From a virus (taxonomy: Duplodnaviria; Caudoviricetes), in the IMG/VR virus record IMGVR_UViG_3300026549_000037, positions 105,638 through 169,637 of that record: 64,000 nucleotides of DNA, one strand, 5' to 3'. The notes beneath the pieces are model-generated. The model saw nothing but the letters and a program-made list of their open reading frames with translations, was not told where the DNA came from and did not search any database. The translations under genes were made by a program, and so were the position numbers. Positions 43,885 to 64,000 of the stretch are shown here, piece after piece. The stretch's first letter is position 1; each line of letters starts with the position of its first letter.

Positions 43885-44470
43885 ACTTAAGGAACATCTT
43901 ACCATTCTCAGTGGTAATAGTATTCTTGTAAATCACATCTTTATAACAGAAGATGTAATTATCCAGAGTTTCATTACGCTGAAAACAATCAGGTTTAGTC
44001 ATACGACCGATACCAGACTTATCTCCCTCGTAAACTGTGATGAAATAGAAAGAAGGTTCTCTCACCAGATTATTTCCAAGAGAAGCAGAGAAAGAAAAAT
44101 CACGAATATATGTCTGAATTTCTTTTACTGTTTCTTTATCAGCAATAACATTAAGAACGTTAGAGCAGATAACAATATAAGGGTCATAATAGAGCCCCGA
44201 AGACAAAGCAATATTGTTTTCTTCAACAGGCTTCCAGAACGGGTCATATCCTCTGAAGATAAAACCCTTAGTAGCAAGGAACTGCTCAATATGGTCAGTA
44301 TAGCGACCACAGCCGAAATCAAGGACAATGGGGGTTCGGTCAAATTTGGTAATCTTTGCCCAATGCTCACGAAGAGCATCCCAATCTAAACGATTGTAGA
44401 TAGCAGGAAGCTTCTTGGAGTTGATGGAAGTGTTCTTAGAAGTGATGTCGGACTGAACAGTGCAATACAT
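43883..44470 (-). CDS. Class I SAM-dependent methyltransferase
   Basis: VLDFGCGR; YDPF; CSNVLNVI. Confidence 0.8.
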   Translation of the reverse strand: MYCTVQSDITSKNTSINSKKLPAIYNRLDWDALREHWAKITKFDRTPIVLDFGCGRYTDHIEQFLATKGFIFRGYDPFWKPVEENNIALSSGLYYDPYIVICSNVLNVIADKETVKEIQTYIRDFSFSASLGNNLVREPSFYFITVYEGDKSGIGRMTKPDCFQRNETLDNYIFCYKDVIYKNTITTENGKMFLK

Positions 44471-44855: not shown

Positions 44856-45116
44856 TTGACAAATAGAAAAAGATATGTTATAATATCTTTATGAAAAGGT
44901 TGGAAGTTCAATCCCGCCTAAGCTTATTTAAAGCTTAAAGTAGCCTAAATAACTTATACCAATCATTTTAAATTAAATGAAAGATTGATTTAGGAACCAT
45001 TTTAAATGGATTGAAATCTACATTTTATCACCTCAATTCTATTCCGATGAACATAAGATAGCTATACGGGTAGCGAGTAAGAGAGACAGAAGTGTGAGTT
45101 CTGTCTCTCATTTTTT
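44856..45116 (+). ncRNA. Cassette 2 antisense RNA unit
   Basis: TTGACA 44856 / TATAAT 44879; gcta-tacggg-tagc hairpin; terminator 45081-45116. Confidence 0.7.
44973..45023 (-). CDS. Cassette 2 micro-peptide with TAG at codon 2: M*ISIHLKWFLNQSFI
   Basis: GAGGTGA RBS; same position in cassette; divergent sequence. Confidence 0.5.
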
Positions 45117-45385: not shown

Positions 45386-45406
45386 AGTAACCTCCCTTAA
45401 ACAAAC

Positions 45407-48333: not shown

Positions 48334-48586
48334 TTGACAAACAGATTGGAATATGTTATACTGTCCACAGTAAGAGAAGTTGACCCACATCTTCCCTTAC
48401 TGTGCGTAATTAAAGTGGTGTATTAATTACGGTGCTTCATAATGAAGACACAAACAATATTGTCGGTGTAATCGACGTAGATGATTTTCTACATACAATC
48501 GTCTCCTTTCAAATAAGATGATATGTAAACAGAGTTGTGGGACTCTGGAAACATTAGAGAGTGGTTTTACTGCTCTCTTTTGTTTT
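48334..48586 (+). ncRNA. Cassette 3 antisense RNA unit
   Basis: TTGACA 48334 / TATACT 48357; loops CCCACA x UGUGGG; terminator 48556-48586. Confidence 0.8.
48423..48494 (-). CDS. Cassette 3 micro-peptide with TAG at codon 2: M*KIIYVDYTDNIVCVFIMKHRN
   Basis: GAAAGGAGA RBS; homologous to cassettes 1 and 4. Confidence 0.7.
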
Positions 48587-49064
48587 AGTCACGAGGGTCA
48601 AAAGCAACGTCAATCCAAAGACTGTTTCCTGCCTCGGAGTCATAATAAAGTTCAGCATTTTCAACAAATAGCTCATCGGAAAGGTCATTCCAATCCAAAG
48701 AGCCGACTGCAACAGAGAGACAGGTATGTCCACCTCCAATTATCCATTTACCCTTAGATGTATTGTAGATTGCAATTTTGGTATCTTTGGAGAGGATTCG
48801 AATAAAATCCTTAATGGAAACATAGTGGTCAGGGTTTACAGTCTTATTTTCCTCCCCGTTTAAATAATTGCAAGCCGCCTTGAAATCTTCAAGGAAATAG
48901 TGACCCTGAGCCCAATAATGACGCTGATAATCAATTCCCCATGCCACAGTATAACGGGGATGACCATCATCAGTCCAATTGCACAGGAGAGTGCGGTCAA
49001 GTTCTTTGTTCTCCGCAACGATTTCGTAAGTGATGCCATTGTCATTCTTAAACTCTCTAACCAT
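48585..49064 (-). CDS. hypothetical protein (W.QGHYF motif)
   Basis: GGAGG RBS. Confidence 0.7.
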   Translation of the reverse strand: MVREFKNDNGITYEIVAENKELDRTLLCNWTDDGHPRYTVAWGIDYQRHYWAQGHYFLEDFKAACNYLNGEENKTVNPDHYVSIKDFIRILSKDTKIAIYNTSKGKWIIGGGHTCLSVAVGSLDWNDLSDELFVENAELYYDSEAGNSLWIDVAFDPRD

Positions 49065-49108
49065 TTTAAATACCTCCAAATATTTTTTAATAAATTTCGA
49101 AAAAAGAC

Positions 49109-49376
49109 TTGACAAATGTGTAAAGATATGCTATAATTAAGTCACAATCTAAAAGAGACCTGCAACCTCAGATAGATTGTGACTTGTATAAGAAATCAAC
49201 TCGCATTAATTTCTATGTTTAACTATTAATACCTAACAGGTATTATAAGTATAATCAATGTGTATGATTTTACTCATGTGAAATCACCTCTTTTCTCCCT
49301 CTATAGGGAAAGTTAAGCTTTGCAGGAGCTTAATAAAAAGGACGAGTAGCTGCTAACTACCCGTCCTTTTATTTTT
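49109..49376 (+). ncRNA. Cassette 4 antisense RNA unit
   Basis: TTGACA 49109 / TATAAT 49132; loops CCUGCAA x UUGCAGG; bidirectional terminator 49333-49376. Confidence 0.8.
49206..49277 (-). CDS. Cassette 4 micro-peptide with TAG at codon 15: MSKIIHIDYTYNTC*VLIVKHRN
   Basis: GAGGTGA RBS; the TAG aligns with CAG (Gln) of cassette 1. Confidence 0.7.
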
Positions 49377-49857
49377 ATCTGTTCTGCTTGCCAACAAAAG
49401 CAAGATTTTCTAACTTGATAGTCAGAACATCAGGCTTTTCATCAAGCTTGTTGAAATATGATGCCTGAATAAGACCAGTTGCCTGAAGGTCAGCTTTCTT
49501 GATTTCCTTACCGTCAAGGAAATACTTAACCTTAGACTTATTGGGAGTGCTGTGAGCAACAACATAGATGTTATGCTCACCAGCCTTGTTGGTGTGCTCA
49601 ATAAAACGGTCAGAACCAGAGAGATAAGTTCCCCAAGTCCTCTGCTGAGGAACATAGCCCTGTTCCATCTTTGCCTTGATGGAAGCCTTGTTTGTACGAT
49701 TGATGCCGAAGCGGACAGTTGCAAGGGTCTTCTTGTAGGCAACGTGACCAGCCCTCTTTGCTGCGGCAGTTAACGGAAGGTCAGTAGTCCATCCGATATT
49801 GGTGAAAGTCCCCTTGTGGATAGCGTTGATGATGGTCATAGCTTCGTTCTTGTTCAT
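49375..49857 (-). CDS. hypothetical basic protein
   Basis: AGGAG RBS; strongly biased codon usage. Confidence 0.75.
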   Translation of the reverse strand: MNKNEAMTIINAIHKGTFTNIGWTTDLPLTAAAKRAGHVAYKKTLATVRFGINRTNKASIKAKMEQGYVPQQRTWGTYLSGSDRFIEHTNKAGEHNIYVVAHSTPNKSKVKYFLDGKEIKKADLQATGLIQASYFNKLDEKPDVLTIKLENLAFVGKQNR

Positions 49858-49908
49858 GATTTTGTTCTCCTTTAAATTAAAATAGATTTTTATTCAGAAA
49901 CCCAGATT

Positions 49909-51102
49909 TCACTCTGGGCTGTCTGTTTTATTGTAAACATCAAAAGCATATTCTTGCTGGTATTTTTGTTCAGCTTCTTTTCTTGCTTGTACAGCTTCTT
50001 CAAAAGATGGGAAAAATTTATTTAAAACTTTTTTCTTTTTTACTGTTAAATTGGCTAACCACCTCTTTTTCCCACGCGGATTATAAGAAACACCTTTTAC
50101 TCCTGTTGTATTTCTTGAATTGGCATGGGAGTTCATACTATTTTGATAAGGTTCAACCACTCTTAAATTGTTTTTGCGATTATCTCTTATAAGATTGCCA
50201 GTTTTAGGATGCCTTTTATGGTCTACAATCCTTTTATCATCAAAATCCAATCCCATAATAAAACGATGCAAAAACAACTTTCGAGCTTTTCGATGTCCAA
50301 TACTAAAATTAGCAAACACATAACCTTTATTACTAAATGTCCAATAATATTCGCTAATTTTTTCGTAATCTTCTTTGTCGATTAGGAAATATTCTCCGTT
50401 TTTGTCATAAACCGTATAATAATCCCCGTCATCACTTAATTCATAAACATTGTGTTCTCTTCTTTCTTTTCCTGCGTCTATTAAGGCACAGCCACATGAT
50501 TTAACACTTCCGTTTTTTAAGTTATCCGAAGATACTGAAACTAATAAAGGATTACCACAATCACATTTGCAAAACCATCTTGGTTTGGCGCGATTACCTC
50601 TATTATAATCAGGAAAAAGAACAGTAAGTTTATTAAATTTTTGTCCCAGTAAATTTTCTCTCGTGCTTCTATTATCCTCTGCTTGGCACCCACAAGAAGT
50701 GGTATGCCCTGTGGTTAAATTGCTTTGATTAATAGAATATGGAATAACATTACCGCATTCACATTCGCAAAACCAATAGCGTATATTATTATGTTCTGAT
50801 TCCTCCCTTTCTAAATCTTCTTTTATTACAATTAGTCTTCCAAATTTACAGCCTGTTAAGTCTATTCTTTTTTCAAATGCTTTCTCCTTTTTTAAACATC
50901 CACAAGACCTAACAGGATGTTTTCCTGTTAAATTGTGGCGTTCAACTGAAATTATAGTATGTTTTTCACAAGAACATTCGCAGAGCCAGTAACTTCCTTT
51001 GGGTTTTCCTTCAGATTGTCTTTGTTTTTCTTTTTCTAAATCTTCTTTTATAACAGTTAATTTTCCGAAAACCTTTCCTGTATAATCTATCTTTTTACTC
51101 AT
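49909..51102 (-). CDS. HNH homing endonuclease with N-terminal Cys-rich repeats and C-terminal AP2 domain
   Basis: three (D)LTG.KFG.L.V..W.C.C.CG..SCGC repeats; LHRFIM..VDH..DNRKNNLR; NTTGVKGV..W.A..EEAVQARK. Confidence 0.85.
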   Translation of the reverse strand: MSKKIDYTGKVFGKLTVIKEDLEKEKQRQSEGKPKGSYWLCECSCEKHTIISVERHNLTGKHPVRSCGCLKKEKAFEKRIDLTGCKFGRLIVIKEDLEREESEHNNIRYWFCECECGNVIPYSINQSNLTTGHTTSCGCQAEDNRSTRENLLGQKFNKLTVLFPDYNRGNRAKPRWFCKCDCGNPLLVSVSSDNLKNGSVKSCGCALIDAGKERREHNVYELSDDGDYYTVYDKNGEYFLIDKEDYEKISEYYWTFSNKGYVFANFSIGHRKARKLFLHRFIMGLDFDDKRIVDHKRHPKTGNLIRDNRKNNLRVVEPYQNSMNSHANSRNTTGVKGVSYNPRGKKRWLANLTVKKKKVLNKFFPSFEEAVQARKEAEQKYQQEYAFDVYNKTDSPE

Positions 51103-51131
51103 AAATCCTCGACTTTCTTTATTGGAGAGGC

Positions 51132-52136
51132 TTAGGCAGCCTCTCCAATAATTTCATAAACTTTATTTAATAATGGCATTCCAACCATAACATTGGTAAA
51201 TCCCATTGGAGTTTTAGGGGTTCGCAGTGCTACAGGGTGAGACTCAAAGTCAGAAATTGCAAGGAGCCCCGCATATCCTGTATTTTTAAAATTCTCAACA
51301 TCAGCCTGCTTGTAGCACTTCATCAGATAATCAATCTGACAAAGATTGCGAATCTGGATAATGTCCTTATCCTCAGTATGAACAGGGAACAGTTCCTTTG
51401 CCATTTCAAAGAACTGATTTTCACTGAAATCAATCTTTGCATATTCCTCACACTCCTTCTTGAACTCCTCAAGATACTGCTTCTGTCCCATAAGAGTGAG
51501 ACGTGCCGCCTCAAGCTTATGATTCATAGAAGAACTATGACGAATACTGATTTCATTTACCATGCCCTTACGAGCACGAGCAAGGCAATTGGAACAAAAG
51601 ATGCGGATGCTGACATAAGAAATGGAGATTGCCCTACTTCCATCGTGGGAGTTTTGAAGTAGGAGATAAGGCTTATAATCATCACCAAGAATATTCATTC
51701 CCTCCGTACTCATGGTAATGATGTTTTTAGCTCCATTGGTTCCATAACTTCCTGCGGTTTCAAAGTGAGCACCTTCTTCCACAAGAGAGTCGAGGAAGTC
51801 AAAAGCATCTTCATTGTTCAGAATCTCATAGTTGGGAGAAACAATACCAAGAGACTGCATGGTATCAGTACGAACCGTAGCAACCTTATCCTTGATTGCA
51901 TAAGGAGTCTGAACCATAATCTGCTTATCTCCCATCATCTGAACAACGGGCTGAGTAAACTGGATAGGGAACTTCTCAACCTTGTAGTTGAGTCCAGACA
52001 ATTCGAGAGCCTGAGCAAGATTGCCAGCAGAGGTGATGTCCTTACCTACGCCATCGGTAAACACAGTGCGCTGAACATTGTCAAAACGAGAAGCGATAGG
52101 AGCGACTTTCTCACTATTGAACTGAAGAATACCCAT
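51132..52136 (-). CDS. DUF932-domain protein
   Basis: ATVRTDT..LGIVS..Y....N..AFDF; ETAGS; NSHDGS; RIFCSN. Confidence 0.85.
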   Translation of the reverse strand: MGILQFNSEKVAPIASRFDNVQRTVFTDGVGKDITSAGNLAQALELSGLNYKVEKFPIQFTQPVVQMMGDKQIMVQTPYAIKDKVATVRTDTMQSLGIVSPNYEILNNEDAFDFLDSLVEEGAHFETAGSYGTNGAKNIITMSTEGMNILGDDYKPYLLLQNSHDGSRAISISYVSIRIFCSNCLARARKGMVNEISIRHSSSMNHKLEAARLTLMGQKQYLEEFKKECEEYAKIDFSENQFFEMAKELFPVHTEDKDIIQIRNLCQIDYLMKCYKQADVENFKNTGYAGLLAISDFESHPVALRTPKTPMGFTNVMVGMPLLNKVYEIIGEAA

Positions 52137-52189
52137 AATATTTCCTTTCTGCGTTTAAGCTCGCCAGCTTTTTTGTTTTTGTTGAGATA

Positions 52190-52218
52190 ATTATATCACA
52201 AAAGTTTGGATTTGTCAA
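52190..52218 (-). promoter_or_regulatory. sigma-A promoter
   Basis: TTGACA-17-TATAAT on the - strand. Confidence 0.85.
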
Positions 52219-52268
52219 GGACTTTAGATTAAATAATCTAAAGTTTTTGAAGGTGAAGGGTGGAAGAT

Positions 52269-52802
52269 TTACTTCCACCCATATACCTTCTTAATGTAGG
52301 GAGCAAGGGAACGGGTGTATCTGGTAATGTCTTTCTTGGTGACTGTGCCGTTGTAGACTTTCCAGAGGAAATTGTCAGCTTGGTCAGAACTGATGCTTGG
52401 CTTAAGCTCTCTGTAAATACAGATATGACTTGCATCATGATGAGTTTGCTTACATCCGAAATCATATCGGTCTACATAGAAATCAGCGTAGGCACAATCT
52501 CCGAAGAACGTAAGACATTCTCCGATATTGTGACCGTAAAGCTTATATCCAAGCCTACGACCATTCCAAAGACCAATATCAGCAATACAGACGATACGTC
52601 CCTGAGTATAAATATTGAGATTCATGCGCTCATCATCAAGATAACTGTTATTGAGTTCATACATCTCTTCTCTGAGCGTGTCATCGTCAACATCGGTAGG
52701 GAGACCATTAATCTCTCTGTTTTCGAGCAATCCCTCCTTCCAATCTTCAAGGTCAAGGTCGTAATTTTGCCAAATGTGGTGGATAGGTTCTCTGGTTTTC
52801 AT
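52269..52802 (-). CDS. conserved phage hypothetical protein
   Basis: ADIGLWNGR; HHD; GGAGG RBS. Confidence 0.75.
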   Translation of the reverse strand: MKTREPIHHIWQNYDLDLEDWKEGLLENREINGLPTDVDDDTLREEMYELNNSYLDDERMNLNIYTQGRIVCIADIGLWNGRRLGYKLYGHNIGECLTFFGDCAYADFYVDRYDFGCKQTHHDASHICIYRELKPSISSDQADNFLWKVYNGTVTKKDITRYTRSLAPYIKKVYGWK

Positions 52803-52832
52803 GTTCGTACCTCCATAATTTTATTTGAGTTT

Positions 52833-52861
52833 ATTTTAAACCATCCAAGATGGTTTGTCAA
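52833..52861 (-). promoter_or_regulatory. sigma-A promoter whose 17-bp spacer is a palindrome (operator-like)
   Basis: TTGACA-aaccatcttggatggtt-TAAAAT. Confidence 0.7.
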
Positions 52862-52926
52862 GGGGTTAAACTAAAAAATAGTAAATTTAAGCGCCAATGC
52901 AACTACTACAATAGATATAATCGTCT

Positions 52927-53190
52927 TCATCGAGATACGCAGACGGGAGAGCCATTGTGCTTCCACAACAAGTACATTTCACAATCATTTGCCATATTTT
53001 TCAGAATTTTAGCATACTCACGATGCTCTTCTGCATATCCCTCCCACTGTTCAGCAGATTCCTTAGTATCACTACCCAAAGCAAAGATATGGCAGTTGGA
53101 TGCAGTATCCAATTCATCTTTTGCCGCTTCAAGGTACATCTCCTTCATCCATTCAATCATATTCTCCGTCAAATTCATGTTCTTAGCCAT
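52927..53190 (-). CDS. hypothetical protein
   Basis: RBS preceded by pseudoknot copy B. Confidence 0.65.
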   Translation of the reverse strand: MAKNMNLTENMIEWMKEMYLEAAKDELDTASNCHIFALGSDTKESAEQWEGYAEEHREYAKILKNMANDCEMYLLWKHNGSPVCVSR

Positions 53191-53270
53191 AATATTTCCT
53201 TTCTCCCCGTGTAGCCAGTTAGGTCAGCTTAAATGTGTTGTTTGTTAATGTGAAGTTGATTTGTTAGATG

Positions 53271-54887
53271 TTAATCACGAGGAGTAACACAAACCTTGAG
53301 TTTATTTTTCTTGGCATACTCGCAAATAGCTTTGTATTCGTCCTCTGTGATACTACGGTTAGAAGCTCCTCTTGCTTGAACAATGGCTTCGTTTTCAATT
53401 TCAATAGTAACCAAGGGCTTGTCAGTAGCTTTTGTCTTACGAAGGAAAACAATCAGGCTATTTTTCTTAAGAATTTTAGAAATGTAGCTGGCAACACAAT
53501 GATTCAACGCAGAACCTTCATGCTTGACATCATCTGCATTCTTAGGACGAATAATACTGTATGTTTTATCCTCCGTGATAAAAGGTGTGAAATCTTTATA
53601 GGCATTTTCAAACATCTCCGCCTGTTCCTCGGTAAGCTTGACTTTAAAATTACGAGAAGTAATATCATGAGTCTGCTTGAGGTAAGAACTGTAAAGAGTA
53701 GGCTTAATATCCATGGAAATGCACATATCAAGATAGTCACGAAGCTCACCAATAAACGAGTTTAAAGTATTAAAACCTTGGTTGATAGTTTCTTCACAGA
53801 CATAATCCATAAACTTGCCAAAGGTGTAGAACTGATAGAATTTGGAATTTCTATAATAGTAGTTTGTCCTCATATAACACTCTAATGTAAAACTGAAAAC
53901 ATTTCCATTTCCATCAACACTAACATGATTGAATTCGAATTCTTCGTCCCAATACTTAGCTTTTTCAATAATATCAAACCATTCCTGATTTGTGTAATGG
54001 CAGAAATCCTCTAAAGTCAGTCCTTTGTTATAATAATTATACTCGTAATCATACTCGTTTTTCTTAAATGCGGAATCAACGATAGACTGCAAACTCATCC
54101 AATCATCAAGAATATTTCTGTCATTGGCTTCTTTGTATTCTGCTTTCGTAAGATGAACAAGCTTGTAAACAGGTTCAGCAGTTTCAATTGTAAGGCTAAG
54201 AAGAGCATTTTGAATAGATTTGGGAGCAGTGCGGAAGATGATTTCAGCAGATTTATTTCTACTTAATGCAAGCTTTAATTCTCTGAAAGTAAATTTAGGT
54301 CCAATATTCTCAATAGGAATACCCCAAGCCTGAGAGATGAAATAAACTGCACTATCACCCATTCCAGCTTCATAAACGGGAGTAACGCCATTACTGACAG
54401 GCTGTGCATCAGGTTCAAGAATAGGAATTATCTGTTCACCGTCCATGATAAAGTTGCAAGAAGCATTGTTGGTGGCAATTTTGTATCTATAATGACGAGA
54501 TACAACAGCACCAAGAAGGAAGCAATAGCCAACATTGACCCAAAAATCACCACCTTTTAAATTAATTTCCTTGATAACAAAAGTGTTAGGAGAAAGACTA
54601 TCATAATCGACAGGAGCACCAGTAAATAAATCGAAATACAAATTAGAATCAGAACGGTTCGACTTGTAATGAATAATAATTTTCTTTCCAAGAGGAGTAA
54701 AATCACTATTATAGCGAATGTTTTGAACCTTAGTTATTTCGATTTTTGCCTCTTCAAGCTTATCAGTGAGCTCTTTAATACGAGCGTTGATTTCCTTTTC
54801 TTTAGCAGAAACTTCATAGTTGTTAAAGAAGCTTGCATAATCGTGAGTGGAAGACTTGTAGAAATTAGCAATAGAAGTGTTAGACAT
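53271..54887 (-). CDS. PcfJ-domain protein
   Basis: DYLDM...LKQTHD...EGSALNHCVASY...IVFLRK...TIEI...QARG..N. Confidence 0.85.
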   Translation of the reverse strand: MSNTSIANFYKSSTHDYASFFNNYEVSAKEKEINARIKELTDKLEEAKIEITKVQNIRYNSDFTPLGKKIIIHYKSNRSDSNLYFDLFTGAPVDYDSLSPNTFVIKEINLKGGDFWVNVGYCFLLGAVVSRHYRYKIATNNASCNFIMDGEQIIPILEPDAQPVSNGVTPVYEAGMGDSAVYFISQAWGIPIENIGPKFTFRELKLALSRNKSAEIIFRTAPKSIQNALLSLTIETAEPVYKLVHLTKAEYKEANDRNILDDWMSLQSIVDSAFKKNEYDYEYNYYNKGLTLEDFCHYTNQEWFDIIEKAKYWDEEFEFNHVSVDGNGNVFSFTLECYMRTNYYYRNSKFYQFYTFGKFMDYVCEETINQGFNTLNSFIGELRDYLDMCISMDIKPTLYSSYLKQTHDITSRNFKVKLTEEQAEMFENAYKDFTPFITEDKTYSIIRPKNADDVKHEGSALNHCVASYISKILKKNSLIVFLRKTKATDKPLVTIEIENEAIVQARGASNRSITEDEYKAICEYAKKNKLKVCVTPRD

Positions 54888-54966
54888 AATCAAATCTCCT
54901 TTAATATTTTATAGATTATAGGTTGATAGGGACTTTATATAAAGGGGAGGTTTCCCTCCCCAGATA

Positions 54967-55698
54967 TTAGATAAGCTCACCAGTGTAGTTGTAAAGCTTA
55001 CCATCAACCTTTTCACGAAGTTCATAGAATTCACGAGACTTCAAGACTCCAAGGATTTTCTCCTTGAGCTCAGGCTGAGTGCGATAATAGTCACCATTGT
55101 AACTCCAATGACGCTTATAGATTTGCATAGAATCTTTTTCTTTAAGAGCCTTAACAGGGGTGTAAAGACTAACAGTTACATCTTCTCCCTTGCTATTCTT
55201 ATAGGTGAGTTTGATGTAAATTTCAACAGGGTAACTACCATAAGAAGGGACATAAGATTCAAACTTGTAATCCTTTAGATACGGATAATCTCGGAGAAGA
55301 GCCTCCTTATAAACCTTAGCAAGATTACCAACATTCTGATACTGATAGGAAACACGATAACCAATAGCAGGAAGATAAACAGTACGGTGGAAATCGGTGT
55401 TACCCTGATATTCCTCAAAGCTATGGCAACGGTCAATACACTCACGTTCATAATTCTTTTCCCAATAGCTACCAGGAACGGCACATTCTTGAGGGATATA
55501 ATGGATAGCACAAATATCTCCGATAGAGAGATTTTCAAGAATCCATTCAAGAGTAGATTTAGAGAAACAATTCTCCCAAGAATCCCAATTGCAGATATAG
55601 CGGTCAGCCTCTTCCAAAGTGATACCGAGTTCATCAGAATGGATAGGGGAATCATAGATAGAAACAATGTGATTACGAGAATTAACAGACTTACGCAT
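54967..55698 (-). CDS. hypothetical protein
   Basis: RBS. Confidence 0.7.
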   Translation of the reverse strand: MRKSVNSRNHIVSIYDSPIHSDELGITLEEADRYICNWDSWENCFSKSTLEWILENLSIGDICAIHYIPQECAVPGSYWEKNYERECIDRCHSFEEYQGNTDFHRTVYLPAIGYRVSYQYQNVGNLAKVYKEALLRDYPYLKDYKFESYVPSYGSYPVEIYIKLTYKNSKGEDVTVSLYTPVKALKEKDSMQIYKRHWSYNGDYYRTQPELKEKILGVLKSREFYELREKVDGKLYNYTGELI

Positions 55699-55783
55699 AA
55701 TAAATACTTCCTTTCTTAAATACATCTGTTTAAAACCTTATAAAGATTTAAACTACTTTCTTATGATTGAGATGAGAGGGGAA

Positions 55784-56278
55784 TTACTTCCCCTCATCCT
55801 CATAATCATCTTCATAATCAAGGTCAGTCTCAGCTTCAGCGTTGAGCTCATGAATCTTAGCAAGAGCACGAAGCTTCAGAATCTCCCGAATGGCTTCCTT
55901 GGGGATATTGTCTCCCATGTCAGAAGCATCAGCTAATTCCTTACCAGCCATGTCGTAAATCTTCTTGGACTGGTAAGAAATCACACAGTCTTCATCTTCG
56001 ATTCTCACCTGTTCGTCGGGCTGGATGTTGTTCTCGTTCATGGAAGCTTCAAAGTTCACCTGAGACATGACTTCCATGACAAGAGCCATTCCCTTCTTGT
56101 CGCTATTATTAACAATACGCTGAATAACAGCAAGACCAGCTTCACGGTCTGCCTCAGATACAGAGCCCATTGCGCCAACCTTGATTTCGTCGATATAAAG
56201 GAATTCGAGGTTGCTGTTGTTTTCCTTCATGAGCTGGACGCGATTCAGGGACTTCTTGTTGTTGTTGATGTTAGCCAT
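55784..56278 (-). CDS. hypothetical acidic protein
   Basis: RBS preceded by pseudoknot copy E. Confidence 0.7.
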   Translation of the reverse strand: MANINNNKKSLNRVQLMKENNSNLEFLYIDEIKVGAMGSVSEADREAGLAVIQRIVNNSDKKGMALVMEVMSQVNFEASMNENNIQPDEQVRIEDEDCVISYQSKKIYDMAGKELADASDMGDNIPKEAIREILKLRALAKIHELNAEAETDLDYEDDYEDEGK

Positions 56279-56350
56279 AATAGATTCCTTTCCGTTTTAA
56301 CGTCTTGAACGTGACGTAAATTTATTGAACCTTAATAATAAATGTTGTTA

Positions 56351-56569
56351 TTAGCATTCAGTCTTCTTAATGGACATAAAGTTTCCAAGCTCTTTTAGTG
56401 CAGTGAAAAGTTCACCAGCCAAAACGTCATTAAGCTGAAACTCAAGTTTTTGTCCATGAAAGTTAGTAACAGAGAAATTGTAAAAACCATTTTCTTTGTT
56501 GAGACTAATAGCTGTGGCAGACCTATCATCATTAGCACTGATATTATAAGTTTTGTTAATAGTTAGCAT
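56351..56569 (-). CDS. hypothetical protein
   Basis: ORF in operon. Confidence 0.55.
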   Translation of the reverse strand: MLTINKTYNISANDDRSATAISLNKENGFYNFSVTNFHGQKLEFQLNDVLAGELFTALKELGNFMSIKKTEC

Positions 56570-56633
56570 TTGATTCTTCTCACTTTCTTTTTTGTTGTGA
56601 TTGTGGATATTTTGATATAGAAAAAGATGGAAA

Positions 56634-57200
56634 TTATTTCCCAGCAATCTCATCATAATTTTCCCGAATAGAACGAATTCGAGTTTCATCAGCTTTGATT
56701 CTGCGCTCGATTTCTCTCATAAGAGCGGAACGGAAAAGATTATAAATGTTATAATCGTCCCACTTAACGAGCCAGCCATCTTTATCTTCACCCAAAGCAG
56801 TAGAGTAATATTCCTCACTGGGATTCAAGGTATAGTTAAAAGAAGTACGCCCTACAGTTGAGTATTTAAGGACATAAACTTTACCATAAGGATTATAACT
56901 AATACACATAAAACAACGTTCGCCAGTATCGTCTCTATTAAAAGAAGCCTGTAAAAAATTGCTAATTATATCTTTTACACCAATGTTTTCAACCGTCTTA
57001 CACAATTCAAGAAGCTGATTGCAGATTTCAGCCCATTTAGCAGCACCAATAGCCTTAATGCGAGGAAGATAAAATTCCTCAGTACGCTCACGAGTAGCTT
57101 TGATGTCGTTCATCTTTTGAATGAGCTCCATCATTTCGGTGTCCTCGTTCTCCTTGCAAGTAACGGTAACGGTCATGTTCTCATAAGTCTTAGTAGTCAT
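56634..57200 (-). CDS. hypothetical protein (paralog of 46342)
   Basis: FYLPRIKAIGAAKWAEICNQL. Confidence 0.75.
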   Translation of the reverse strand: MTTKTYENMTVTVTCKENEDTEMMELIQKMNDIKATRERTEEFYLPRIKAIGAAKWAEICNQLLELCKTVENIGVKDIISNFLQASFNRDDTGERCFMCISYNPYGKVYVLKYSTVGRTSFNYTLNPSEEYYSTALGEDKDGWLVKWDDYNIYNLFRSALMREIERRIKADETRIRSIRENYDEIAGK

Positions 57201-57250
57201 ATTTTGCTCCTTTTCTCCCCGTATAGCCGATAGGACAGCTTATAGTACTT

Positions 57251-57475
57251 TTATTTTATTAAATAATTTTTTGCATAATCGGTGTCGTTGCAGCTTTCAT
57301 CTTCTGTATTATAGCTACGCACACCATCAATATCAAATGCATATTCTATTTGATATCTTAAATCACCTACTGTCCCCTCTGCTTCTCGCAACAATTCAGC
57401 AAGATATAAAATATCTTGTTCTTCTCCTTGTATTATAAGATTATGCTCTTTAAATCGGTAGATTTTAGTTTCCAT
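57251..57475 (-). CDS. hypothetical protein
   Basis: AGGAGG RBS. Confidence 0.65.
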   Translation of the reverse strand: METKIYRFKEHNLIIQGEEQDILYLAELLREAEGTVGDLRYQIEYAFDIDGVRSYNTEDESCNDTDYAKNYLIK

Positions 57476-57495
57476 TTATTTTTTACCTCCTTTAT

Positions 57496-57732
57496 TTAAT
57501 GGCAGAAATGCTTGCAGAGTTCCTTACAGATAACGTGAGAGTATTCATTTCTCCCATCAAATCTGTAATCATCAGAACCACAAGTAGCAATCCACTTAAG
57601 ACACAAACGAGTGAATTCCTCTTGCAGATACCGATGTTCATGAGTCATGAGTTCACAGAACTCTTTGTTATCGTGGCTGAAATTATTAACAAAATCAGTC
57701 ATTGTGGAAACAGCTTCTTTAGCGGTAGGCAT
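57496..57732 (-). CDS. hypothetical protein (HRYLQ..DGRNE)
   Basis: AGGAG RBS. Confidence 0.7.
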   Translation of the reverse strand: MPTAKEAVSTMTDFVNNFSHDNKEFCELMTHEHRYLQEEFTRLCLKWIATCGSDDYRFDGRNEYSHVICKELCKHFCH

Positions 57733-57768
57733 AGTTTTATTCTCCTTTCTTAAATCAAGCACTCAAAA

Positions 57769-58074
57769 TTAGATTTCAACTTCGATGATTTTACAATCCC
57801 AATTGTCGTGATTAAAAGTTTCTGCCCAAGCACAACTCTCATTGAGATTGTTTTCATCGTCCAAAATATCCTCTTTGATAAGGACATCCATAACCTTGTC
57901 TAAATCATCATTGGAATTGATTTCGAATTCGTAATCGTAACTGTTTTCATCCACATATTTACAGGCTTCAAAAAACTTTTCAAGCATACGAATTTGTGCT
58001 TTAAGCATGGTATCAAAGAACTCAGGTTCCCCAATTTCACGCTCACAGCAATCAATAACCATGTACTTCTTCAT
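57769..58074 (-). CDS. hypothetical protein
   Basis: RBS. Confidence 0.65.
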   Translation of the reverse strand: MKKYMVIDCCEREIGEPEFFDTMLKAQIRMLEKFFEACKYVDENSYDYEFEINSNDDLDKVMDVLIKEDILDDENNLNESCAWAETFNHDNWDCKIIEVEI

Positions 58075-58114
58075 AATTTTTTCATTTCCTTTCTTAAATC
58101 ACAATTATTGTTTG

Positions 58115-58303
58115 TTAATCATCAAAATCGCAATTTTCTTCATCGAGGTTGGCATCTCCAACCCATTCAACCTGACGCATTGGAATTAAATCCAAATGCT
58201 TAGAAGCATATTTGATAGCTTCATCAATGGTCATGTCATCAGGGACTTGAATGGAGGAATTATACACTCCAATGCAGTTTACGGTTACATTCAGGGTTTT
58301 CAT
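58115..58303 (-). CDS. hypothetical protein
   Basis: RBS. Confidence 0.65.
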   Translation of the reverse strand: MKTLNVTVNCIGVYNSSIQVPDDMTIDEAIKYASKHLDLIPMRQVEWVGDANLDEENCDFDD

Positions 58304-58346
58304 AATTTTACTTCCTTTCTTAAATCATAAAGGTTGTTATTAGTAT

Positions 58347-58691
58347 TCAGTAATTTATTTCCTCCTTTCTCACATAAATATGATACCAATCTGCTCCCAA
58401 CCAAAAATCCCACTCTCCAAGAATGGTATCTTCAGGTTCAGTGCAAGAAACTTCTGTCAAAATTCCTTTTTCATTAGGAACAAACATCACACCTTCACAC
58501 CAAGAAGGGGCTTCGTCTGAACCACAAAGTTTGAAGTCAACTACAACTCCATTTTCAAATTTTACTGTAAGAAGATAAGAAGACTCTTTTTCTCCTAACC
58601 AATATCTACGATTTTCTTCATCATCCAAACAAGCGGCTTCTACATACCTTGCAATGGACGAAGAAATGTTAATAGTTTTCTCAAATTTCAT
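58347..58691 (-). CDS. hypothetical protein (paralog of the N-terminal half of 59021)
   Basis: LTV.F..G...D...CGS..APSWCE.V..ILG.W. Confidence 0.75.
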   Translation of the reverse strand: MKFEKTINISSSIARYVEAACLDDEENRRYWLGEKESSYLLTVKFENGVVVDFKLCGSDEAPSWCEGVMFVPNEKGILTEVSCTEPEDTILGEWDFWLGADWYHIYVRKEEINY

Positions 58692-58765
58692 TTTTTATTC
58701 CTCCTCCTTAACGTCAGTGGCTTCAAAGTCATCCGACCAAGAAATATCTTCTTTTCAAAAAAGTC

Positions 58766-59040
58766 TTGACAAATGCACTTTTATGTGTTACAATACCTAC
58801 AGAGTCAAGAGACCCGTAATCTCTTAACTCTGTAGGATATTGTTTTAGGCTTCCTTATAGCTCAAGGAAACCAGTTAAAACGATTACATAATAGTAAACG
58901 TTAAAACGGTAGTTGATAGATTTAATTTTCTACATGGCTTTCATCTCCTTTCTGCCTTAGACAAGGGTTTCATATATTTGAACAGCTTACGGGGCTGGAA
59001 TTTTAGATGGGAACAGGATTTTACTCCTGTTCCTTTTCTT
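58766..59040 (+). ncRNA. Cassette 5 antisense RNA unit
   Basis: TTGACA 58766 / TACAAT 58789; loops CCCGUAA x UUACGGG; terminator 59009-59040. Confidence 0.8.
58855..58935 (-). CDS. Cassette 5 micro-peptide with TAG at codon 2: M*KIKSINYRFNVYYYVIVLTGFLEL
   Basis: GAAAGGAGA RBS; homologous to cassette 6. Confidence 0.7.
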
Positions 59041-59851
59041 TCTCTTCAAAGGGCTTAAGAGGAACACGATTTCGAGTAGTGTATTTTCCTTCGTCATCCA
59101 TCAGAAAATCGTTTTCACAGGAATCACAGAAGAATTTGGTTTCATTCCTGAAATTGTCAACTTCCTCAACCCAATAGTTCCCACAGTAAGGACAGCGAGG
59201 CTCAATATACTGTCCGAATTTAATATCCTCCTGATATTCCTCAGAACGAAGTTCAGACCAAACCTTGACAGAAAATTCCTTAGGATTATCAGGATTGAGC
59301 TCAGCCATGCAAATATCCTGTTCGACTGTCTGTCCATCACGGACAAACGTAATAAACGCTCCATGATACCCTTCTTCCATTTCAGGATAAATCCTGAACT
59401 GACCATTAGGCGTGTCGATAGATGCGTAAGGGACGCTGTTCTTAGTCGCAGAATGCATCATCATCTCATTGAACACTTTATTGTTTTTGTTGATAGGCAT
59501 TTCTGTTTCCTCCTCAATTTTGACATTGACAATATATTCATTCTTAGTATCAGGGGCAACCATTTCCCAATGACCGAGGATAGAATCATAAACTGCTCCA
59601 GAACAGTTTATTTCATGTAAACCTCCGTTTTCATCAGGAGTCCAAAGAACAGACTCACACCAAGAGGGAGCATCCTGAGAACCACAGCAACGAATATCCA
59701 TTACCGTTCCATCAGAAAATCTAACGGTAAGGGTGAATGGAGTTTTATTTTCTGAGAACCAATCTTCGGGATAGCTTAAAGAACACGCCTTATTAATTTT
59801 GGCGGCAATATCCTTGCTGATAAAGATGTCTTTTTCATAAAAATGCTTCAT
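59021..59851 (-). CDS. hypothetical multi-domain protein with C-terminal Zn ribbon
   Basis: AGGAGG RBS; internal GAGGAGG..ATG near 59500; CPYC..CDSC. Confidence 0.7.
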   Translation of the reverse strand: MKHFYEKDIFISKDIAAKINKACSLSYPEDWFSENKTPFTLTVRFSDGTVMDIRCCGSQDAPSWCESVLWTPDENGGLHEINCSGAVYDSILGHWEMVAPDTKNEYIVNVKIEEETEMPINKNNKVFNEMMMHSATKNSVPYASIDTPNGQFRIYPEMEEGYHGAFITFVRDGQTVEQDICMAELNPDNPKEFSVKVWSELRSEEYQEDIKFGQYIEPRCPYCGNYWVEEVDNFRNETKFFCDSCENDFLMDDEGKYTTRNRVPLKPFEEKEKEQE

Positions 59852-59898
59852 TTTACTTATCCTCCTTAAAGTTATTTTTTATTTTTTGGTTTTTGGTT

Positions 59899-60096
59899 TT
59901 AATACATATAATACTCATCGTCATGATGAAGATATTTCTCAGTCAAATCCTTTAAAGGTTGACTGATTTTTGCGGGTTTCTCTTTAAGGCGTGAATCCTT
60001 AAAGGCTCGATTTGTGTAGTATCGGAACTTGCCATGTCCCTTTACCATTTTATTATGTTTTTGAGCTTGTAGGATTTCATGTTCGTTCATGCCCAT
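59899..60096 (-). CDS. hypothetical protein
   Basis: AGGAGGTG RBS. Confidence 0.6.
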   Translation of the reverse strand: MGMNEHEILQAQKHNKMVKGHGKFRYYTNRAFKDSRLKEKPAKISQPLKDLTEKYLHHDDEYYMY

Positions 60097-60125
60097 ATTA
60101 TTTCACCTCCTTTTGCTGTAATTTA

Positions 60126-60380
60126 TTAGTTCTTCTTAAGGCGAGGGGTAATGGCAACACCATTTTCGGTGCTAACAACGATATACTCAACTCCATTATC
60201 TTTGTCCGTAAGAATATTAGCAGAAATAGTGGCTTTCTCCGCAACGGTCTTTTCAACAAACGGAGACCAACAAAAGCTGGAATATCCCGCTGAAACAGAG
60301 CTAATAAACAAGGTGATAAGAACGATAATGCAAATGATAAAGGTGACGATGTTCTTCTTCATAGTGTTCATGGTTTTCAT
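60126..60380 (-). CDS. membrane-anchored DUF6440-like protein
   Basis: TM then ILTDKDNGVEYI...GVAITPR. Confidence 0.65.
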   Translation of the reverse strand: MKTMNTMKKNIVTFIICIIVLITLFISSVSAGYSSFCWSPFVEKTVAEKATISANILTDKDNGVEYIVVSTENGVAITPRLKKN

Positions 60381-60434
60381 TTTTCTTTTTCCTTTCCTTT
60401 TCTTTTTATCCTATTTAATTTCAATTACTGATTA

Positions 60435-61274
60435 TTAACAGTCTCCAATTGCTACGGCATAATAGAAATCATACATCTTTTGACGTGAGTTAACATCTAA
60501 CTCATCCCAAGATTCAACTTCCTCGCCTGATGCACTCATGTCTTCTTCATACCACTTCCTTGCTGTATATTCTGGGAATCCTGCTTTTGTAATAATGTGT
60601 TCTGATTCTACACCTTCTTCCTTTGTGCTTGTAGTAATTGAGGAGATTTGATATGGTTGATACGGAATGTTAATGTAATCATTATATAAACTGCCATATC
60701 CATATCTACCATACCCATATCCACCATAACCCCCATATCTATAACCGTAATTTGCCATATGGTATGTTTCTTTTAAGTGGGGCTTATTTAAGAATGTCGC
60801 AATACTTTCGACTTGTTCATTGCATTCAATAGCAGATTTACAGTATTTATTGCGAACAGTTCTTATTGGGTCATCATAGCCCATCTTACCTAAGACACAA
60901 GCGGCAATATATCCTGTTCTACCATGTCCGCCAAGACAGAAGATTGCAACTTTCTTTGTCTTAATACGAGAAATAATGTCCGTCACACAACGCTTAAGAA
61001 TAGATTGAGGTAAAACCCCATAATCTTCAATGGGATAATATAGAACTTCGCCGCAAAAACCTGTATTCCAAATCTCCCCACCAAGTTCTGCTAAAGGAAC
61101 AAGAACATCAATTTTCTTTTCTTTTACGAGGTCTTTCACTTGACGCTCTTTGCAAAGATAAAGATTTGGAATGATTTCTGTAGGCTTGTGACAGGCAGTG
61201 GAAGCCCAAATGTTTTTGGCTTCTAAGACATTGTTTGTCTTGTTTTTATTTTTCTTTTTGTTGCGCTTACTCAT
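60435..61274 (-). CDS. Protein-tyrosine/dual-specificity phosphatase
   Basis: PIEDY; FCLGGHGRTG (CX5R); AIE...Q. Confidence 0.88.
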   Translation of the reverse strand: MSKRNKKKNKNKTNNVLEAKNIWASTACHKPTEIIPNLYLCKERQVKDLVKEKKIDVLVPLAELGGEIWNTGFCGEVLYYPIEDYGVLPQSILKRCVTDIISRIKTKKVAIFCLGGHGRTGYIAACVLGKMGYDDPIRTVRNKYCKSAIECNEQVESIATFLNKPHLKETYHMANYGYRYGGYGGYGYGRYGYGSLYNDYINIPYQPYQISSITTSTKEEGVESEHIITKAGFPEYTARKWYEEDMSASGEEVESWDELDVNSRQKMYDFYYAVAIGDC

Positions 61275-62268
61275 TAGAACTTAACCCCCTTCTATCAAAA
61301 CGACTTTTATCATTTTTTCTCCTTCTCCGTTTTCTGTTTTCTTTATCTTCGTCTTCAAAGTCTTCTGGATGAACCTCTCTATAATATCCATCCTTTTTAT
61401 CTATATCAGACGGATAGATTCTGCTTGTTCCCCATTTAACGGGAATATAGTTCATAATGTTGTCGGTAGTTTCTTCTTTCTGCTCTGAAACAGCGCTATA
61501 ATAGCCACCATAACACTCAGAAAGTAGATAAATATTTTCTTTGTCTGTTAAGGGAGAAATTATGCCGAGATTTAAAGCTCTTTTGTAAAAGGCTTTAATC
61601 TCATAAGTACAATTGTCTTGGCAAACATCCCATACTGCAAATGGTGGTTGATTTTTCTTGAATTCAAGAAAATTCAGCACAGCCGTATTTGAAGAACCCA
61701 AGAAAAATATCCTATTTCTCTTGTTGTAGAAAATACCGTTATTGTGGCTCAAATCAACCATATGGTCGATAAAAACCGAATCGGGAACTTTCTTATATAA
61801 TAAAGCACCATCTGCAATGGCTTGCCATGCATAGCCGCCATAAGCACAGTTCCAATCCTTATTATAACTAAAAAGCTTGGAACAGGTAATCAAAGCATTT
61901 GTTGGCTCAAGATGCGGACAGTTCCATAAACTGTTTCGTTCATTTAATGCGGGTGTGAGATAACGAATTTCATAATTGCACTTTTCGGGCGCGTGACGTG
62001 CTTCACCCAAGCAAAGTGCAACGGCATAGTCATAAAACATTACTGCAAATTGAGCATCGAATTTGGTTTTAAATTCTTCAAATTCTTCAACCCACTTATC
62101 ATGTCCATGATTAAATGGAATCGGTTTGGCCATGACACTTAAAGCTTCGAGGGCATAAAACTCTCTGATACCTTGATACACAGGAACGATAATGTTGCTG
62201 GGACAAATTTCTCCATCGCCCCAATTTGGGAATCTTTTAGGATTTTGTTTGAATAAATCATCGTACAT
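61267..62268 (-). CDS. hypothetical protein (GEARH, YGG.AW, DH.VDL.HNNG motifs)
   Basis: 333-aa ORF, AGGAGG RBS. Confidence 0.7.
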   Translation of the reverse strand: MYDDLFKQNPKRFPNWGDGEICPSNIIVPVYQGIREFYALEALSVMAKPIPFNHGHDKWVEEFEEFKTKFDAQFAVMFYDYAVALCLGEARHAPEKCNYEIRYLTPALNERNSLWNCPHLEPTNALITCSKLFSYNKDWNCAYGGYAWQAIADGALLYKKVPDSVFIDHMVDLSHNNGIFYNKRNRIFFLGSSNTAVLNFLEFKKNQPPFAVWDVCQDNCTYEIKAFYKRALNLGIISPLTDKENIYLLSECYGGYYSAVSEQKEETTDNIMNYIPVKWGTSRIYPSDIDKKDGYYREVHPEDFEDEDKENRKRRRRKNDKSRFDRRGLSSNE

Positions 62269-62324
62269 TTTACTTAGCCTCCTTTAAAATAAAGTTGAAA
62301 TATTTATTTAAAAATGTAAAGAGT

Positions 62325-62636
62325 TTAATAATGGTATCTGCCCCCTTGGGGATTATCCTCCTTCCTCTTGTAATTAAACACCTTGCTAATATTGTAAGCC
62401 CAAATATTATTCAGGCTTGCATCAACACAAGGTTGCACATGAATTGGAAAATGAATTGAAGCGCAATACTCTTCAATCCTTTTGAGTTGGAATTTTCGGA
62501 ACACTGTGATGGTTTCACCCTTGAGCAGAGCTCTGATGTCAGCTTGTTCAAGAGTGTCAATCAGCAGGTTTAGTTTGTTGTTGCTATCTATGTTATTGAT
62601 AGCTTCATTTAGGTAACGTTCCTGCATCGTAAGCAT
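62325..62636 (-). CDS. hypothetical protein
   Basis: AGGAGG RBS. Confidence 0.6.
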   Translation of the reverse strand: MLTMQERYLNEAINNIDSNNKLNLLIDTLEQADIRALLKGETITVFRKFQLKRIEEYCASIHFPIHVQPCVDASLNNIWAYNISKVFNYKRKEDNPQGGRYHY

Positions 62637-62637
62637 T

Positions 62638-63093
62638 TTACTTAGCCTCCTTTTCACGATTTACAGCAGCTTTTCTTAATTCATCCTGAGAATCATAATA
62701 CTGCTCAAAGGCATCACAGCCTTCCCAAGAGATTTCAGATTGAAGCTTTACAAGCTTTTCCGTGGCTTCTGCCAACGCTCTCTGAGCCTCTTCGAGAGCA
62801 GACTTCTGTAATGCAATATAGGAATCCATTGCAATATTCTTTGCCATAAGAATGGCGGTGAATTCATCTTTGAAAAACCCTTCATAGTGCTGAGGCATAA
62901 TATGAGTTTTCATTTCATTGAAAGTGCTCATACTGATAAACCGTTCTCTCAATTCGTGTGATGCCAGAAAATATACAGGATTTTCATTGGTATTTTGAAT
63001 ATTCTGAATTTTATACACACACAGAACATTCATTGTAGTAGGTTGACGATATGTTAAGATATATTCATATCCGTCCAAAGTAATATTTTTCAT
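62638..63093 (-). CDS. hypothetical protein
   Basis: AGGAGG RBS. Confidence 0.65.
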   Translation of the reverse strand: MKNITLDGYEYILTYRQPTTMNVLCVYKIQNIQNTNENPVYFLASHELRERFISMSTFNEMKTHIMPQHYEGFFKDEFTAILMAKNIAMDSYIALQKSALEEAQRALAEATEKLVKLQSEISWEGCDAFEQYYDSQDELRKAAVNREKEAK

Positions 63094-63118
63094 TTGCTTT
63101 TATCCTCCTAAATTTTAA

Positions 63119-63328
63119 TTAGAAATAATACTTAAAGTAACAGTCGATGGGTTTGACTGTCACTTTAGCCGATGAGCTCAAACCCATCTTGGTTGTTTTG
63201 ACAACATATCCAAAACGGGCATAAGCGTCCTTCTCACTTCTGGCTACCACGTCGCCCTCGTATAGCTTGGATTGTCCTCCAAGCTGTGCAACGTAGGCTT
63301 TGACGTGGTATTTACTACGTAATTTCAT
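63119..63328 (-). CDS. hypothetical protein
   Basis: AGGAGGTG RBS. Confidence 0.6.
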   Translation of the reverse strand: MKLRSKYHVKAYVAQLGGQSKLYEGDVVARSEKDAYARFGYVVKTTKMGLSSSAKVTVKPIDCYFKYYF

Positions 63329-63342
63329 TAATTCACCTCCTT

Positions 63343-63663
63343 TTATTCTGCGGTAATGACCCACTCTTCGCCATTACCATCAACAATATGAACAACTTCA
63401 TCGTTGATAGTAACAGATTCGAGATTGCTCATCCATGCTTCCACAATCTCTACATGAGAAGCCATAGCTGACTCTTCAGCGTCAGACAATCCTGTTTCAT
63501 ATCCTACTTGGAAAGACCCTGTAAGGTCTTCACGACTATAAAGAGTATCATCTTTAATCTGATAGGATTTCTCTCCCATGTCCCATCCAAGATAGAACAT
63601 AAAGATAGAGCAGATAGCGGCGATGAGCGCTGCGACCAAAATAATGTTTTCCTTAATTTTCAT
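63343..63663 (-). CDS. membrane-anchored protein
   Basis: GGAGG RBS; N-terminal TM. Confidence 0.65.
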   Translation of the reverse strand: MKIKENIILVAALIAAICSIFMFYLGWDMGEKSYQIKDDTLYSREDLTGSFQVGYETGLSDAEESAMASHVEIVEAWMSNLESVTINDEVVHIVDGNGEEWVITAE

Positions 63664-63697
63664 TTTTCTATTCCTCCAAATATTTTATAAATTTTAC

Positions 63698-64000
63698 TTG
63701 ACAAACGCTAAATACTATGGTATAATTCTCTCAAGAAGTGAGGAATCCCGTATTATTTTCTCACTCCTTGAGGCTATTGGTTGATACTATCAGAACTTTA
63801 AGTTGCGACCTTAAAGCTCAATTACGCCACCAACATAAATGGCGTAGACTACAATGCTGAATCTGTAATCAACCTACTTTGTGAGTGTCATATATGATTC
63901 ACTTCCTTTCTTCCTCTAACTGAGGGATTGTCCATCTATACGGGCTGGACTTATAGGAAAAGATTGAACGACTCGTTGTGGGAGTCGTTCTTTCTTTTTT
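63698..64000 (+). ncRNA. Cassette 6 antisense RNA unit
   Basis: TTGACA 63698 / TATAAT 63721; loops CCCGUAU x AUACGGG; terminator 63966-64000. Confidence 0.8.
63811..63891 (-). CDS. Cassette 6 micro-peptide with TAG at codon 6: MTLTK*VDYRFSIVVYAIYVGGVIEL
   Basis: GAAAGGAAG RBS; homologous to cassette 5. Confidence 0.7.

Follow-up and report, generated by a model that had tools for sequence, protein, structure and literature searches.

Long-range contacts keep the toxin messenger RNAs (mRNAs) of the hok and AapA1 systems silent, and the details of the hok fold-back (fbi-tac) are reportedly owed to work from the Gerdes laboratory. Fully paired loops of 6-7 nucleotides (nt) are the geometry of well-studied kissing complexes (ColE1 RNA I/II, TAR-TAR*). 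In AapA1, owing to the long-distance contact, the full-length mRNA is stable, is not translated and is inaccessible to the antitoxin, and pairing between AapA1 and IsoA1 starts via two loop-loop contacts (PMC8167048); in ibs/Sib, two recognition domains act (PMC4147584). Here we describe six small cassettes (C1-C6) in the last 64 kb of a 169,637-bp IMG/VR virus record (IMGVR_UViG_3300026549_000037; completeness estimate 78%), a stretch that we refer to as the window. Each cassette contains a very short open reading frame (ORF), and in most members of the family this “micro-ORF” is bracketed by two hairpins whose loops are complementary and change together. On the sequence evidence, the primary structure is most likely a clasp formed by these loops on the mRNA, around the Shine-Dalgarno (SD) sequence and the micro-ORF, with the antisense RNA being a less likely carrier.

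Cassette layout and covarying loops

The cassettes are small modules that lie among − strand genes. Read 5' to 3' on the mRNA (− strand), each basically consists of a short hairpin with a loop of the form CC-Y-R-Y-A, the SD, an ORF of 16-27 codons, and a long hairpin with a loop of the form U-R-Y-R-GG. The opposite (+) strand of all six cassettes carries a predicted sigma-70-type consensus promoter (TTGACA-N17-TATAAT, with an extended -10) and a predicted intrinsic terminator; the promoter of C1 ends in TATATT and falls outside the strict consensus pattern. The terminator occurs within ~210-270 nt of the promoter in each case, and the predicted antisense RNA, of this same length, would span the SD and micro-ORF domain. 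Genome-wide, the strict pattern (CTTGACAA-N16-18-TAYAMT, mostly with an extended -10) has 22 matches on the + strand and one on the − strand, and a reversed control pattern has none.

Judged by their substitution pattern, the micro-ORFs evolve as real coding sequence, because differences at codon positions 1, 2 and 3 number 664, 388 and 1251 (125 equal-length pairs of family members) and the C-terminal KHRN motif is retained through synonymous changes, including Arg as CGC, CGT or AGA. The encoded peptides have 16-27 residues and a hydrophobic core. Every micro-ORF of the window contains one in-frame TAG; those of the sister phages have 0, 1 or 2, so that the amber codon is usual and not obligatory. 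In C3 (48495-48530) and in YHRN cassettes of sister phages, a conserved UGUUUACAUA occurs directly 3' of the upstream hairpin on the mRNA. It is complementary to UAUGUAG, which holds the start codon and the amber codon, and is paired in the C3 fold; the other groups do not have this feature.

For C3-C6, the 6-7 nt loop of the promoter-side hairpin and the loop of the pre-terminator hairpin are exactly complementary. The original prediction, made from the sequence alone, had claimed a covarying loop-loop complement of this type, and all twelve of its motif coordinates are exact. Hairpins are predicted for either strand. Upon folding, the motifs of C3, C5 and C6 are located in or at the hairpin apex, and the 5' hairpin of C4, which is missing from the minimum free energy (MFE) structure of the whole + transcript, is present in the fold of the 5' segment alone. 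The loop of the short hairpin just before the + terminator has 6-8 nt in these four cassettes. Partner loops are 144-208 nt apart, and 6-8 (up to 10) Watson-Crick pairs are possible between them.

With two flanking proteins as queries we found 18 related records, and 53 distinct cassettes were taken from nine genomes. A perfect 6-nt core complement in a hairpin context is present in 43 of the 53. The cores fall into seven types (CCCACA, CCCGUA, CCUACA, CCUAUA, CCUGCA, CCUGUA and UCCACA), in which positions 3, 4 and 5 (Y, R, Y) each vary on both sides together. The flanks behave in the same way: position 7 switches between A-U and U-A between the GFLEL and GGVIEL peptide groups, and position 0 switches from A-U to U-A. 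Such flank switches lengthen some of the helices to 8 or 10 bp. MFE loops as drawn undercount the pairing, because RNAfold forms U·G pairs within the U-R-Y-R-GG loops; a stem-flank rule was used instead. Under a stricter stem rule, complement runs of 7-10 nt occur in 23 cassettes and runs of 6 in 14, versus no runs of at least 7 and four runs of 6 for the same search in direct orientation. Cognate loop pairs have runs of 6-10, while non-cognate type pairs reach at most 5.

In an unguided MAFFT alignment, 88% of the core-pair cells (six pairs) are paired, and the covariation score is 0.465, which none of 500 shuffles reaches; shuffled data score 0.302, and sliding the partner by 1-3 columns yields 0.09-0.21. 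The score is conservative, because the loops are misaligned in some rows of this alignment. The stems of the short and long hairpins are unrelated, and the complement is thus not an inverted duplication. The covariation claimed by the original prediction is therefore borne out by the 43 cores, the seven types, and the failure of the shuffled, slid and direct-orientation controls to match them. Its further claim, that the complement brackets the peptide-coding segment and implies structural selection, holds as well: the SD and micro-ORF are enclosed, and the covariation implies a selected RNA-RNA contact.

A strict pattern scan of IMG/VR for the ATG-TAG micro-ORF returned only the sister contigs and one further contig of 108 kb, which has loop types already known and, in addition, one cassette whose loop pair is weaker.

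The strand and possible role of the proposed clasp

The strand that carries the clasp can be approached through the hairpin stems. We folded 40 distinct long hairpins with the 6-nt core forced to be unpaired, in order to exclude intra-loop U·G pairs. Folded as the mRNA strand they contain 54 G·U pairs, versus 17 as the + strand, and the summed energies are -735 and -596 kcal/mol, respectively; in 19 of 20 peptide/loop groups, the mRNA strand gives the more stable long hairpin. The + terminators, which are located ~30 nt from the short hairpin, behave in the opposite manner when taken in symmetric windows (44 G·U pairs on the + strand versus 9; more stable on the + strand in 26 of 29). Since the nearby terminators show this opposite bias, and since G and C are balanced on the + strand, a regional mutation or composition bias does not account for the result.

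Cassettes of unusual architecture are also informative. Composite cassettes carry an additional 5' hairpin; in these, the complement is found in the second hairpin, which is located ~90 nt inside the + transcript, beside the ORF stop and 144 nt from its partner. Tandem double cassettes exist in sister phages, and in these a hairpin without a U-tract, inside a longer + transcript, has the partner loop for the upstream micro-ORF. The partner thus stays by the ORF stop, and the pair is placed relative to the ORF and not to the ends of the antisense RNA. Orthogonality of loop types within a genome is not seen: a single genome can have up to four cassettes of the CCCGUA type, which argues against trans discrimination between copies and suits cis pairing.

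We therefore favor a structure in which the loops would kiss in cis on the mRNA, closing the SD and micro-ORF into one domain of ~150-200 nt. By analogy with hok and AapA1, such a clasp may hold the micro-ORF message closed, in a stable form with poor translation or poor access for the antisense RNA, and the clasp, the antisense RNA and the amber codon might jointly delay or limit peptide synthesis. The function of storage or lock is suggested because the long-range contacts of hok and AapA1 keep their toxin mRNAs silent, and we would give a clasp that acts in this manner about an even chance.

Several observations weigh against this reading. The Watson-Crick complement is equal on both strands, and the loop helix by itself names no strand; the short hairpin has no consistent strand bias (8 of 20 groups). 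The cassettes are paralogues and orthologues, and counts of alignment cells overstate the number of independent events. Roughly 10 of the 53 cassettes are without a loop pair, including one group with a different kind of upstream hairpin. With regard to expression, no sigma-70-like promoter was detected by a regex scan of the peptide strand that covered the 330 nt preceding the micro-ORFs, although other promoter types are possible, and the stop of the upstream gene adjoins the terminator complement; the micro-ORF message probably belongs to a polycistronic RNA, unlike classic toxin mRNAs. Finally, in local folding the paired probability is 0.56 for the SD and 0.62 for the AUG, compared with 0.61 for the rest of the domain, so that neither element is specifically sequestered by local folding. 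A translational lock would therefore have to act via the tertiary contact. The secondary proposal of the original prediction, a fold-back lock on the mRNA strand, nonetheless agrees better with the strand evidence and with the composite and tandem cassettes.

The primary framing of that prediction was a fold of the + strand cassette RNA. If the clasp belonged to this RNA, the 5' loop would kiss the pre-terminator loop and either compact and stabilize the small antisense RNA or mask its recognition loops. The complement serves this RNA equally well, the long hairpin begins 2-4 nt past the predicted + start in most cassettes with the short hairpin adjoining the + terminator, and one flank change (A to G opposite U) preserves pairing on the + strand only. 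The G·U asymmetry and folding energies do not favor it, however: as + RNA the long hairpin has A·C mismatches where the mRNA has G·U, and is weaker in all but one of the 20 groups. The composite and tandem cassettes also disfavor it, since their partner hairpin is ~90-250 nt inside the + transcript and yet beside the ORF stop, and we regard a clasp on the antisense RNA as unlikely. The two RNAs might alternatively share the loops in a dual role, each being self-clasped while the loops also nucleate sense-antisense kissing, such that closure versus attack would time duplex formation and cleavage by RNase III. All observations are compatible with this arrangement. Each loop of one RNA is identical in sequence to the other loop of the partner RNA, the 5' loop of the + RNA being equal to that of the mRNA, and there are precedents in the two loop-loop contacts that begin AapA1/IsoA1 pairing (PMC8167048) and in the two recognition domains of ibs/Sib (PMC4147584). 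The strand asymmetry of the long hairpin nevertheless indicates selection that is not symmetric, and a dual role seems doubtful to us.

The cores can also be viewed as DNA, in which they are inverted repeats with palindromic arms that superficially resemble recombinase sites, and might serve a recombinase or invertase that flips the ORF segment, or act as paired protein sites. This is very improbable, because the arms differ between the two sites and among cassettes, their mismatch types are strand-asymmetric, unlike those of DNA palindromes, and the core sequences vary within a genome, unlike a shared protein site. A site-specific inversion switch is rejected: none of 57 family micro-ORFs, which were found without reference to promoters, is flipped, and 51 of the 57 face a convergent promoter. 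Least probable of all is chance, or common ancestry without selection. One ancestral complement could have been inherited by paralogous cassettes, but all seven core types are complementary, with two-sided changes at three core positions and in the flanks, the hairpin stems are unrelated, and the direct-orientation control is nearly empty.

A more speculative extension of the mRNA clasp, to which we assign a low probability, is that the clasp, amber codon and antisense RNA together form a sensor of the phage genetic-code state, i.e., an RNA switch that is read by stop-codon reassignment. As long as TAG terminates, ribosomes would dissociate at the amber codon, and the domain would stay shut by the clasp and guarded by the antisense RNA. 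With an active suppressor tRNA, ribosomes would traverse the micro-ORF toward the long hairpin and open the clasp, with release of the peptide; opening might also alter stability, or the extent of read-through into the gene that lies downstream.

Long-range RNA locks are a central and rarely documented control layer of antisense-regulated small-peptide genes, and the cassettes offer an unusually clean natural covariation series, with seven loop types over dozens of copies. The cassettes occur in phages in which TAG changes its meaning in the course of infection. Should translation be gated by the clasp, code switching would be connected with antisense control and RNA tertiary structure in a single module of ~250 nt, which is small enough for direct testing. 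The cassettes would also add an unannotated class of peptide genes, missed by standard gene callers owing to their size and in-frame TAG, to the biology of recoded phages.

Irregular cassettes, genome context and TAG recoding

Two of the six cassettes deviate from the standard arrangement (Table 1). C1 has no loop pair; in its place, a segment upstream of the SD and the bases that directly follow the stop codon make up a 10-bp helix. The original prediction had stated that C1 uses a different pair, and the G018 orthologue agrees in part: 8 bp are identical, and of the next three positions, as read by eye, two are compensated and one is mismatched. For C2, a partial pair had been described, and the 4-nt match is present. 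In its SD, ATG-TAG, terminator and upstream hairpin (loop complement CCCGTA), C2 matches an intact LHHRN cassette that is present in two sister phages, and it is unrelated elsewhere. As judged by this comparison, C2 is not a weak member of the series but a truncated cassette with its 3' half replaced, and the match is a remnant.

Table 1. Cassette features in window coordinates (strand “.”, assigned to neither strand).
Feature	Position	Strand	Basis
C1 antisense promoter, TTGACA-N17-TATATT	43648..43676	+	sequence
C1 long-range helix, arm beside ORF stop, ACTCATTCGT on +	43719..43728	.	G018 orthologue
C1 micro-ORF, M-TAG-RIIFVDYVSSIVQVFIIKHRN	43728..43799	−	
C1 long-range helix, arm upstream of SD, ACGAATGAGT on +; in loop and 3' stem of small hairpin	43830..43839	.	
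C1 intrinsic terminator	43851..43885	+	
C2 antisense promoter	44856..44884	+	
C2 residual 4-nt complement, CCCG (44913) / CGGG (45067)	44913..45070	.	
C3 antisense promoter	48334..48362	+	
C3 long hairpin downstream of ORF stop; loop CCCACA on + 48384-48389 (UGUGGG on mRNA)	48369..48401	−	
C3 micro-ORF, M-TAG-KIIYVDYTDNIVCVFIMKHRN	48423..48494	−	
C3 short hairpin upstream of SD; 6-nt loop TGTGGG on + 48536-48541	48530..48547	−	
C3 terminator	48556..48586	+	
C4 antisense promoter	49109..49137	+	
C4 long hairpin; loop CCTGCAA on + 49159-49165	49140..49184	−	
C4 micro-ORF, MSKIIHIDYTYNTC-TAG-VLIVKHRN	49206..49277	−	
C4 short hairpin; 7-nt loop TTGCAGG on + 49320-49326	49313..49333	−	
C4 terminator	49336..49372	+	
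C5 antisense promoter	58766..58794	+	
C5 long hairpin; loop CCCGTAA on + 58813-58819; continuous stem (with G·U) on mRNA strand only	58797..58835	−	
C5 micro-ORF, M-TAG-KIKSINYRFNVYYYVIVLTGFLEL	58855..58935	−	
C5 short hairpin; 7-nt loop TTACGGG on + 58987-58993	58983..58997	−	
C5 terminator	59009..59042	+	
C6 antisense promoter	63698..63726	+	
C6 long hairpin; CCCGTAT within loop, on + 63747-63753	63730..63772	−	
C6 micro-ORF, MTLTK-TAG-VDYRFSIVVYAIYVGGVIEL	63811..63891	−	
C6 short hairpin; ATACGGG within loop, on + 63938-63944	63930..63950	−	
C6 terminator, reaching contig end	63966..64000	+	

Cassettes turn over among the sister phages. At the position of C1 (L019-L027, G005/G002) they have been gained, lost or swapped, and in many relatives no consensus promoter precedes the gene downstream of C1, while in one relative a different type of cassette does so. 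In a distant relative (L047-L049, ~47% protein identity), three consensus promoters face ORFs of 41-44 codons without TAG (MNVEQIKETTPP... and paralogues), which may constitute a different family of antisense-guarded small genes.

Ten genes, including the six downstream of the cassettes, matched only families of unknown function in PHROGs, plus one HNH endonuclease. The latter (397 amino acids, PHROG 374, E 4e-63; 49909-51102, − strand) is located between cassettes, and its gene is served by the sole − strand match to the strict promoter consensus in the window (52190-52219).

The G+C content is 35.5%, and complete sister genomes are ~215 kb in length. Genes of the window are on the + strand up to ~40 kb and on the − strand from ~41 kb onward. 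Several + strand frames of 1,000-2,200 codons contain 3-13 in-frame TAGs, among them giant genes outside the window (at G000:C1 29040-44590, a contig handle, and elsewhere). On codon comparison, TAG is read as glutamine in at least part of the genome, because CAA or CAG is opposite in 29 of the 39 orthologous codons that differ at TAG between this genome and one sister phage. Stop codons of the window ORFs with at least 100 amino acids are TAA in 73 cases, TGA in 15 and TAG in one. At 45116-45688 on the − strand, adjacent ORFs of 89 and 93 amino acids fuse to a 195-codon frame if one TAG is read through, and this may be a recoded gene inside an otherwise standard-code − strand block.

Two tRNA-like genes were noted in addition. 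One, 3.1 kb before the window (L070:10194-10503; genome ~102,194-102,503), is split by an insert of ~250 nt. Its 5' part ends in GCGGT-CT, and its 3' part begins with CTAAA-ACCGT, followed by the T arm (GGTTCGAATCC); the joined halves would give a CUA (amber) anticodon loop. ARAGORN does not call a tRNA at this position, and the gene was parsed with a long variable arm and is a poor fit to a glutamine tRNA. Part of the insert has a weak Rfam group I intron match (26.6 bits, E 1.5e-4, below gathering). The other gene (G000:C1 98372-98443) is tRNA-like according to ARAGORN, with a 6-nt anticodon loop and an anticodon that is not assignable.

Comparison with described systems

Searches by similarity place the module in no described family. 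Rfam has no match at gathering score across the whole window, and C1-C4 have only chance matches at E ≤ 1; the micro-ORF peptides have no match in Pfam, blastn against phage records gave no match, and we found no description of such a module in the literature on recoded phages and type I systems. By architecture, the module is analogous to type I toxin-antitoxin loci that carry a fold-back lock. As in type I loci, an antisense RNA gene that has a promoter and a terminator of its own is predicted over the ORF and SD, and the terminator stems are selected on the + strand. A toxin gene with its own promoter was not detected by the regex scan, and sequence or covariance-model similarity to a described family is absent from the Rfam and Pfam results. 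The covarying long-range pairing flanking the ORF that characterizes hok/sok is present, as loop-loop pairing.

The closest parallels are the fbi-tac contact of hok/sok (plasmid R1) and AapA1/IsoA1 (Helicobacter pylori), in which a long-range contact flanks a small peptide ORF, is backed by covariation among paralogues, and is combined with a cis-antisense RNA. These differ from the phage module in that their contact is a linear 5'-3' duplex covering the SD, whereas here it would be a 6-8 bp loop-loop kiss of hairpins, with the SD unsequestered by local folding and the message apparently operon-internal. Moreover, the phage ORF usually needs amber suppression, and there is no sequence or Rfam similarity.

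The ibs/Sib loci of E. coli share with the cassettes the occurrence of several dispersed copies per genome, a very small peptide that is rich in hydrophobic residues, an antisense RNA over the entire ORF and ribosome-binding site, and two recognition regions (PMC4147584). There is, however, no homology between the two, no promoter of its own was found for the phage peptide gene, the in-frame TAG is new, and no intramolecular loop pair has been described for ibs.

Two further systems are similar in geometry. The kissing loops of 3' cap-independent translation enhancers of plant RNA viruses are likewise distant loops of 5-7 nt that flank a coding region and covary between viruses (PMC4820102, PMC5954562). 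These are eukaryotic elements, in which the contact promotes translation by delivering initiation factors, and their sequence and context are unrelated. In ColE1 RNA I/RNA II and R1 CopA/CopT, fully pairing loops of 6-7 nt are closed by short stems as in the cassettes, but the contacts are intermolecular and start antisense pairing, whereas the phage complement lies within one strand.

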